A DNA stretch of 37,258 nucleotides from positions 1 to 37,258 of the IMG/VR virus record IMGVR_UViG_3300045988_170598. One strand, written 5' to 3'. A model generated the notes under the pieces. It was not told where the DNA came from and made no database searches. It worked only from the letters and a program-made list of their open reading frames with translations. Below, in pieces: positions 21,635 to 21,765 of the stretch. The translations under genes were made by a program, and so were the position numbers. The DNA is from a virus. How positions within the stretch are numbered: position 1 is the first letter of the stretch; the number at the start of each line of letters is the position of its first letter.

Positions 21635-21730
21635 AAAAAACCCATTAAGTTGTTACTGTTTGGCGACGGTCAACTCAACGGGTTCACACCTTAGAGAAAG
21701 TATCTCTAACTATTTGCATATTTATATTAT
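21635..21730 (-). ncRNA. predicted antisense copy-control RNA (ctRNA, about 96 nt) against the repA leader
   Basis: Promoter TTGACA-17-TACAAT upstream. SL1 is TTAGAGA/TCTCTAA (21691-21709). SL2 has a 14-bp stem (21639-21652 with 21671-21684) that is perfect with two G-U pairs only on the minus strand, followed by UUUU. Confidence 0.55.
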
Positions 21731-21736
21731 ACGATA

Positions 21737-21765
21737 ATTGTATAAAAAATATGCTTATTTGTCAA
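21737..21765 (-). promoter_or_regulatory. promoter of the predicted ctRNA, TTGACA-17-TACAAT
   Basis: -35 at 21765-21760 and -10 at 21742-21737, minus strand. Confidence 0.55.

Follow-up and report, generated by a model that had tools for sequence, protein, structure and literature searches.

A predicted antisense RNA opposite the repA leader of a Clostridium perfringens phage-plasmid, a candidate for countertranscript control of copy number

How does a phage-plasmid control its replication initiator when no Cop repressor gene adjoins rep? The locus discussed here raises this question. The stretch analysed, called the window throughout, comprises positions 1 to 37,258 (37,258 nucleotides) of the IMG/VR virus record IMGVR_UViG_3300045988_170598, and BLAST found it 100% identical across 601 queried bases to the Clostridium perfringens plasmid pCPC645_4 (NZ_CP075960.1). 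This 38.8-kb element carries a phage tail spike protein, a GH25 lysin, ParM/ParR and a RepA_N initiator, and the combination of tail spike protein, lysin, ParM and RepA_N identifies it as a phage-plasmid. In the window, a 550-bp gap separates the divergent genes parM (20381-21289, minus strand) and repA, whose product matches the Pfam family RepA_N (PF06970) with E = 2.3e-21 and 75.9 bits (cutoff 30) and is annotated as 'replication initiator protein A' in NZ_CP075960.1. At gathering thresholds, Rfam reports only a tRNA in the window, which lies elsewhere on the phage-plasmid (31849-31919, 68.9 bits).

A first-pass annotation, made from the letters alone, had predicted an antisense copy-control RNA opposite the repA leader. 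Our analysis supports this prediction by the antisense promoter, which is kept or replaced in every homologue, by covariation of the stems, by a strand-specific G·U asymmetry and by the RepA_N gene downstream. Beyond that annotation, we found an attenuator hairpin that sequesters the Shine-Dalgarno sequence (SD), its pre-emptor and a CGCCAA loop. With a probability of about 0.8, we propose that the phage-plasmid encodes an antisense RNA of about 85-96 nt that would flip the repA leader into an SD-hiding hairpin, and that copy number would be controlled by this countertranscript. The features on which the proposal is built are collected in Table 1.

Table 1. Predicted features around the repA leader; positions are those of the window.
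Feature	Position	Strand	Description
Second predicted intrinsic terminator	21490-21516	-	11-bp stem and U-run, between the antisense gene and the parMR promoter
Putative rep promoter (P_rep)	21572-21601	+	TAGACA, 18 nt, TG-n-TAAAAT; predicted start near 21608
Predicted antisense RNA	21635-21730	-	5' tail, SL1, 6-nt spacer, SL2 (the terminator)
SL2, predicted intrinsic terminator	21635-21684	-	14-15 bp stem; 18-nt apical region with CGCCAA (21665-21660); U6 (21640-21635)
Predicted pre-emptor (anti-terminator/anti-anti-SD)	21689-21705	+	CCUUAGAGAAAGUAUCU; inside the antisense target
SL1	21691-21709	-	7 bp, UUAGAGA/UCUCUAA; 5-nt loop UACUU
Alternative -10	21731-21726	-	TATAAT; predicted start near 21719
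Predicted antisense promoter (P_as)	21737-21765	-	TTGACA (21765-21760), 17 nt, TACAAT (21742-21737)
OFF hairpin	21786-21840	+	21-bp stem, 21786-21806 with 21818-21838, then U7 (21834-21840)
repA, proposed regulated gene	21841-22671	+	RepA_N-family replication initiator (Pfam PF06970)

The antisense gene and the strand on which its fold is selected

Relatives of the locus were gathered by BLAST against plasmid and phage collections and by scanning viral, genome and metagenome collections for exact patterns. This yielded the leader in 20 distinct versions and the antisense region in 17, and every one of them comes from a C. perfringens plasmid or phage or from a Clostridium-like metagenome contig. 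Most of what the pattern scans picked up was chance matches (21 loci in a one-genome-per-species collection and 21 in metagenomes), and the true members were C. perfringens-type contigs only. A covariance model built from the collected antisense versions, R1, scores 110 bits in the window, finds one copy per related locus and did not match the chance pattern hits. A more divergent architecture was seen at L072:700-990 (IMGVR_UViG_2757320480_000002), where the canonical SL1 is swapped for a different hairpin and R1 scores 53.7 bits; this locus retains the terminator hairpin, the antisense promoter and the attenuator, and a weaker pre-emptor complementarity persists. A distant RepA relative with 28% identity (L074) was rejected, its upstream region being unrelated.

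Is the predicted antisense promoter more than a chance resemblance? Reading both strands confirmed the minus-strand TTGACA-17-TACAAT that had been proposed, which agrees with the consensus at 11 of 12 positions. This AT-rich stretch shows no enrichment of promoter-like sites (8 found versus 10.0 +/- 3.7 in shuffles), and P_as is credible because it is conserved in homologues, not because of the hexamer match alone. TTGACA-17-TA(C/T)(A/T/C)AT is present in 16 of the 20 homologues, and the remaining four have TTGCAT-18-TATAAT or TTGCTT-17-TATAAT at the same place, so that the promoter is kept or replaced in all 20. The 5' ends of the antisense and rep transcripts were predicted from the promoter hexamers; the antisense RNA would be about 96 nt long if started from P_as (near 21730) and about 85 nt from the alternative -10. 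We considered a small protein or toxin as its product and rejected it: the sole open reading frame inside the RNA has 11 codons (ATG), lacks an SD and is frame-shifted in relatives by an indel, and the antisense RNA is thus without a conserved reading frame.

For the minus strand, RNAfold arrives at the very two hairpins that the first-pass annotation had read from the letters (-28.9 kcal/mol, z = -3.8). The shorter, SL1, is formed by the DNA arms TTAGAGA/TCTCTAA and carries GAUACUUUC, a sequence found identically in the 5' arm of the attenuator. In the longer, SL2, AACCCGTTGAGTTG (21684-21671) pairs with CAACTTAATGGGTT (21652-21639) over 14 bp including two G·U pairs, and the run of U residues that follows comprises six. 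A stem of 13-16 bp with a U-run is kept in every version except L010, where it is interrupted (7+6 bp). The same annotation had called the region unusually GC-rich, which is true only of the terminator part, 21635-21690 (44.6% GC, at the 98.5th percentile for a window with a mean of 28.2%), and not of the whole interval 21635-21765 (30.5%, 67th percentile). Its suggestion that AAACAG in the loop and a downstream CUGUUU could form an alternative helix or pseudoknot did not survive comparison, as only 4 of the 17 versions have either motif in the loop and CUGUUU is located beyond the U-run.

Conservation and covariation of the stems in relatives, which had been put forward as a check, were found. 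Across the alignment of 17 versions, 97.8% of 356 stem cells are standard pairs, and sliding the 3' partners by one to three columns drops pairing to 32-58%. Compensatory changes on both sides occur at 8 of the 21 pairs, and the observed covariation score was reached by none of 500 shuffles. The two hairpins contribute differently: in SL1, 100% of cells pair in the 17 sequences and one pair changes from G-C to A-U in four of them; in SL2, pairing is kept in 96.6% of cells, with changes on both sides at 7 of 14 pairs.

On which strand does this fold act? A good fold is available to the plus strand, too, with z = -3.7 over the target region and -7.6 over the leader as a whole; promoter-like hexamers are common in this stretch, and a factor other than an RNA could in principle operate the leader switch described below. 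One reading is that the structures act in cis only, within the rep leader on the plus strand, where they would form an attenuator that responds to a protein or a metabolite, and that a functional antisense RNA is absent. At the long stem of the window, however, both wobble positions are A·C mismatches on the plus strand and no U-run follows, an asymmetry that had been noted for this one sequence and that holds family-wide: 31 wobble cells are G·U on the minus strand and none is A·C, and all 31 would be A·C mismatches in the leader. Only the minus-strand RNA can form the helices in full, and we conclude that the fold is selected in the minus-strand transcript. Together with a U-run that follows the hairpin on the minus strand only, and with a near-consensus minus-strand promoter in 16 homologues and another good one in the other four, this makes a leader acting in cis alone very unlikely.

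A predicted switch in the repA leader

The rep leader is predicted to be about 233 nt long, and the antisense RNA would be complementary to roughly its nucleotides 27-122. An equivalent of P_rep lies at about the same leader distance in four sequence-distinct upstream modules, and its counterparts in relatives read TAGACA-18-TATAAT, TAGACA-18-TAGAAT and TAGTAA-17-TATAAT, the last of which was read by eye. Directly 5' of the -35 of P_rep, we observed a convergent pair of DnaA boxes, TTATCCACA and GGTGGATAA, at 21526-21534 and 21558-21566, and a GTGGATA box is retained at this position in most relatives. The boxes may serve DnaA-dependent control of rep or be part of an origin.

Further upstream, at 21304-21474, four copies of a ACATTGGATTTTCAAT-type repeat form a parC-like array, which includes a perfect palindrome, TTACATTGAAA/TTTCAATGTAA, at 21435-21456. 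The array also holds mirror-image promoter-like sites, one facing parM (21379-21351) and one facing rep (21440-21468). The latter agrees with the consensus at 11 of 12 positions, has a TG and could send extra transcription into the rep leader.

What does the antisense target do in the leader? The OFF hairpin, with a folding energy of -23.6 kcal/mol and z = -6.1, buries the SD GGAGG (21827-21831), and its U7 stands directly before the AUG at 21841. An equivalent SD-sequestering hairpin followed by U5-U8 was found in all 20 homologues. Its anti-SD:SD base helix is conserved, with one pair that switches between A-U, G-C and G·U. RNAalifold applied to the attenuator region recovered only this 8-bp base helix; it misses the upper stem because indels scramble it, and per-sequence folds were therefore used.

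The pre-emptor, which corresponds to the 5' arm and loop of the leader SL1, can pair with 21787-21805 over 17 bp with one bulge (duplex energy -20.4 kcal/mol). This helix is the minimum free energy structure of the nascent leader cut at 21806-21825, i.e. before the 3' arm of the OFF hairpin is made, and it appears in the nascent minimum free energy structure of 19 of the 20 homologues. When the antisense target was masked in silico, the OFF hairpin formed in 19 of 20. In full-length leaders, the ON and OFF folds lie 0-6.4 kcal/mol apart, and in the window the full-length leader favours OFF by 2.9 kcal/mol without antisense RNA. Since OFF is the more stable fold even without antisense RNA, ON must be kinetic, a state reached during transcription. 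Homologues hardly differ in SL1, the pre-emptor and the anti-SD arm, and the ON helix thus rests on conservation and energetics, with little covariation.

Two other parts of the leader are also conserved. The 5' segment AAACGG(A/G)AUAAACAGCAAAAAA (window 21620-21640) shows 6 variants in 20 sequences, and the apical loop of the attenuator reads (U/A)(U/C)GUUUUUUAU (window 21807-21817). These segments are partly complementary, an A-run facing a U-run, which may be low-complexity chance.

From these features we propose the following mechanism. A constitutive minus-strand promoter would produce an untranslated RNA of about 85-96 nt, terminated by its own hairpin and complementary over its full length to part of the 5' leader of the repA mRNA. 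The CGCCAA loop of the terminator hairpin would kiss a YUNR-type UUGGCG loop of the leader, and pairing would then spread. In a free nascent leader, the pre-emptor would pair with 21787-21805, leaving the SD open and preventing the terminator-like hairpin (ON). With antisense RNA on the pre-emptor, 21786-21806 would instead pair with 21818-21838, burying GGAGG and placing the U-run just before the AUG (OFF). This conformation would block translation of RepA and probably also cause premature termination of transcription; the stem beside the U-run is A-U rich, which makes the real termination efficiency uncertain. The sequence elements, their folds, covariation, strand asymmetry and conservation were observed; we infer that the RNA is made, that the loops kiss and that attenuation and translational block share the effect in some proportion. 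As the amount of antisense RNA would track the copy number of the plasmid, it would exert negative feedback on replication and determine incompatibility.

Could the two promoters exert control without any pairing of RNA? P_rep and P_as face each other at a distance of about 135 bp, effects of convergent transcription are documented for pIP501 (PMC5703833), and a second minus-strand terminator follows at 21516-21490; the hairpin with its U-run might then merely terminate stray or convergent minus-strand transcription from rep, with control exerted by promoter collision. Such a scheme leaves unexplained the conserved CGCCAA/UUGGCG loop and the position of the pre-emptor of the SD-sequestering hairpin inside the antisense target (19-20 of 20 homologues), and the minus strand upstream of the antisense interval holds no protein-coding gene that would need a terminator. 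We judge promoter collision to be a highly improbable account. We infer that the terminator at 21490-21516 would halt antisense read-through before the parMR promoter and so insulate par; alternatively, it could end a longer antisense species.

The recognition loop and the movement of the cassette

The SL2 apical region folds such that it displays the hexaloop CGCCAA, and (C/G)GCCAA is present in the antisense RNA of 13 versions. CGCCAA/UUGGCG recurs as a kissing or U-turn motif in antisense systems of the IncFII, IncB and IncI-alpha types. No part of the cassette varies more than the apical recognition region. In two lineages, the apical loop (21653-21670 in the window) is reverse-complemented relative to that of close relatives, whereas the stem beside it has the usual orientation and G·U asymmetry. 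The loops of L003 (2358-2458) and L011 (2014-2112) match the reverse complement of the loop shared by the window and L002 at 16 of 18 nt. For L046 (2022-2124), the local alignment to the reverse complement of an L004-type loop scores 13 over 16 nt, and the loop of L013 (1953-2052) looks partly inverted.

In view of this hypervariable and invertible loop, it is very improbable that the interval serves replication at the DNA level, as an origin, a hairpin for single-strand initiation or a region bound by Rep or DnaA, and is not an RNA gene: the region directly adjoins rep, convergent DnaA boxes lie just upstream and G·T pairs can stabilise single-stranded DNA hairpins too, but these boxes fall outside the antisense interval, a promoter with two hairpins and a U-run is the complete anatomy of a small RNA gene, such an apical sequence suits an RNA recognition loop and not a protein-binding site, and the complementarity of 21689-21705 to an arm of the SD hairpin has no rationale at the DNA level.

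Does the control region travel independently of the initiator that it precedes? The cassette, which runs from the rep promoter through codon 4 (ATG-xxx-xCA-AAT; window 21572-21852), precedes three types of initiator N-terminal domain in the collected loci (L002-L017 and L046), namely RepA_N, DnaB_2/DnaD-type and HTH_36. All belong to mosaic Rep proteins with a common C-terminal module of about 100 amino acids (83-90% identity).

We speculate, tentatively and without leaning towards it, that the loop is a reversible cassette: its apical 16 nt would have been reverse-complemented independently in two or more lineages, through recombination or template switching inside the hairpin, and such an inversion would yield in one step an incompatibility type that does not cross-react. 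The control cassette as a whole would also be passed on in one piece between initiator N-terminal domains that are unrelated. Loop inversion should abolish cross-recognition and would therefore offer a one-step route to a new incompatibility type; if true, it would let related phage-plasmids coexist. We found no description of natural loop inversions in the open-access literature searched. The metagenome assembly OIFS01 contains two cassette variants of opposite loop orientation, L054 and L063 (L006 type and L013 type), a co-occurrence at assembly level that is compatible with coexisting replicons of different specificity.

Comparison with known countertranscript systems

The predicted RNA resembles CopA of the CopA/CopT system (R1, IncFII) in having two hairpins, the second of them long and with a loop, GUCGCCAAA, identical to the CopA consensus, and a U-tail; the target loop UUGGCG is common to CopA/CopT, Inc RNA/repZ and our locus. 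In a permissive Rfam scan, the model of CopA (RF00042) gives a sub-threshold, full-length match at 21631-21707 on the minus strand (24.9 bits versus a threshold of 60, E = 0.011-0.027) and 24.3-25.8 bits in relatives, and PK-repZ gives a sub-threshold match in the leader strand of one relative (30.4 versus 44 bits). Unlike CopA/CopT and the Inc RNA/repZ systems of IncI-alpha and IncB, whose hosts are Gram-negative, our locus has neither a tap/repY leader peptide nor a copy of CGCCAA beside the ribosome binding site (RBS) for a pseudoknot. The likeness to CopA probably reflects convergent use of the same kissing motif.

In the logic of its leader, the locus agrees with pT181 and pIP501, where the 5' arm of a terminator-like hairpin before the start codon likewise pairs with the upstream leader unless the antisense RNA covers it (PMC5703833). 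The initiator families there are different ones (Rep_trans and PriCT_1), our locus has no Cop repressor gene beside rep, and the Rfam model RF00242 (ctRNA_pT181) finds no match in the window, with 36.8 bits in the best relative, L046 (threshold 56).

The staphylococcal plasmids pSK41, pSK1 and pSA564 have several features in common with our locus. As in these, a RepA_N initiator is the gene under proposed control, and the predicted RNA falls in the class of antisense RNAs of about 83 nt that target the 5' UTR of rep some 100 nt ahead of its start codon (PMC5703833, PMC8129170). It is likewise predicted to form two stem-loops with a short spacer, the second being a terminator with a CGCCAA loop: in RNA1 of pSA564, SLII is both terminator and CGCCAA kissing loop (PMC8129170), and we found in the pSK41 sequence CGCCAA in the RNAI terminator loop as well as an SD-sequestering hairpin. 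Exclusive ON and OFF leader folds are a further likeness, with the RBS held in a terminator-like hairpin in OFF and, in silico, antisense RNA favouring OFF. How OFF acts differs between the known systems. Control is by pre-emptor and attenuator in pT181 and by RBS sequestration in pSK41, whose hairpin equivalent to OFF is reported not to attenuate (PMC5703833); the OFF structure of pSA564 both sequesters the RBS and terminates (PMC8129170).

In contrast to these three plasmids, the host here is Clostridium and the replicon a phage-plasmid, the cassette also precedes initiators of the DnaB_2/DnaD and HTH_36 types, and the pre-emptor consists of the 5' arm and loop of the leader SL1 (17 bp). Moreover, R1 has no match at the RNAI of pSK41 (12955-13050), and its best score elsewhere in pSK41 is 15 bits (E = 0.16). 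In design, the locus would thus combine control of the pSK41/pSA564 type with a pT181-like pre-emptor, a likeness by analogy, as R1 does not demonstrate common descent with pSK41 RNAI.

The principle of regulation is not new; what is new is the host and the type of element. No description of this RNA in C. perfringens was found in the open-access literature searched. If our reading is right, replication control of the RNAI/RNA1 type extends beyond Staphylococcus to C. perfringens phage-plasmids and to initiators outside RepA_N. It would provide a testable handle on the copy number and incompatibility of little-studied elements in food-poisoning and animal isolates, and the predicted RNA is a candidate tool for plasmid curing or vector design. 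The natural loop inversions, together with the hypervariable loop, would offer a simple system in which to study the origin of incompatibility specificities.

How widespread is such control among RepA_N replicons? The first-pass annotation had taken countertranscripts to be common in this family, which is documented for staphylococcal plasmids only; a 2017 review described similar RNA control as apparently absent from RepA_N plasmids of other genera (PMC5703833). A 2021 paper proposed instead that such control could be universal in the RepA_N family (PMC8129170), and the Clostridium case presented here supports that proposal.
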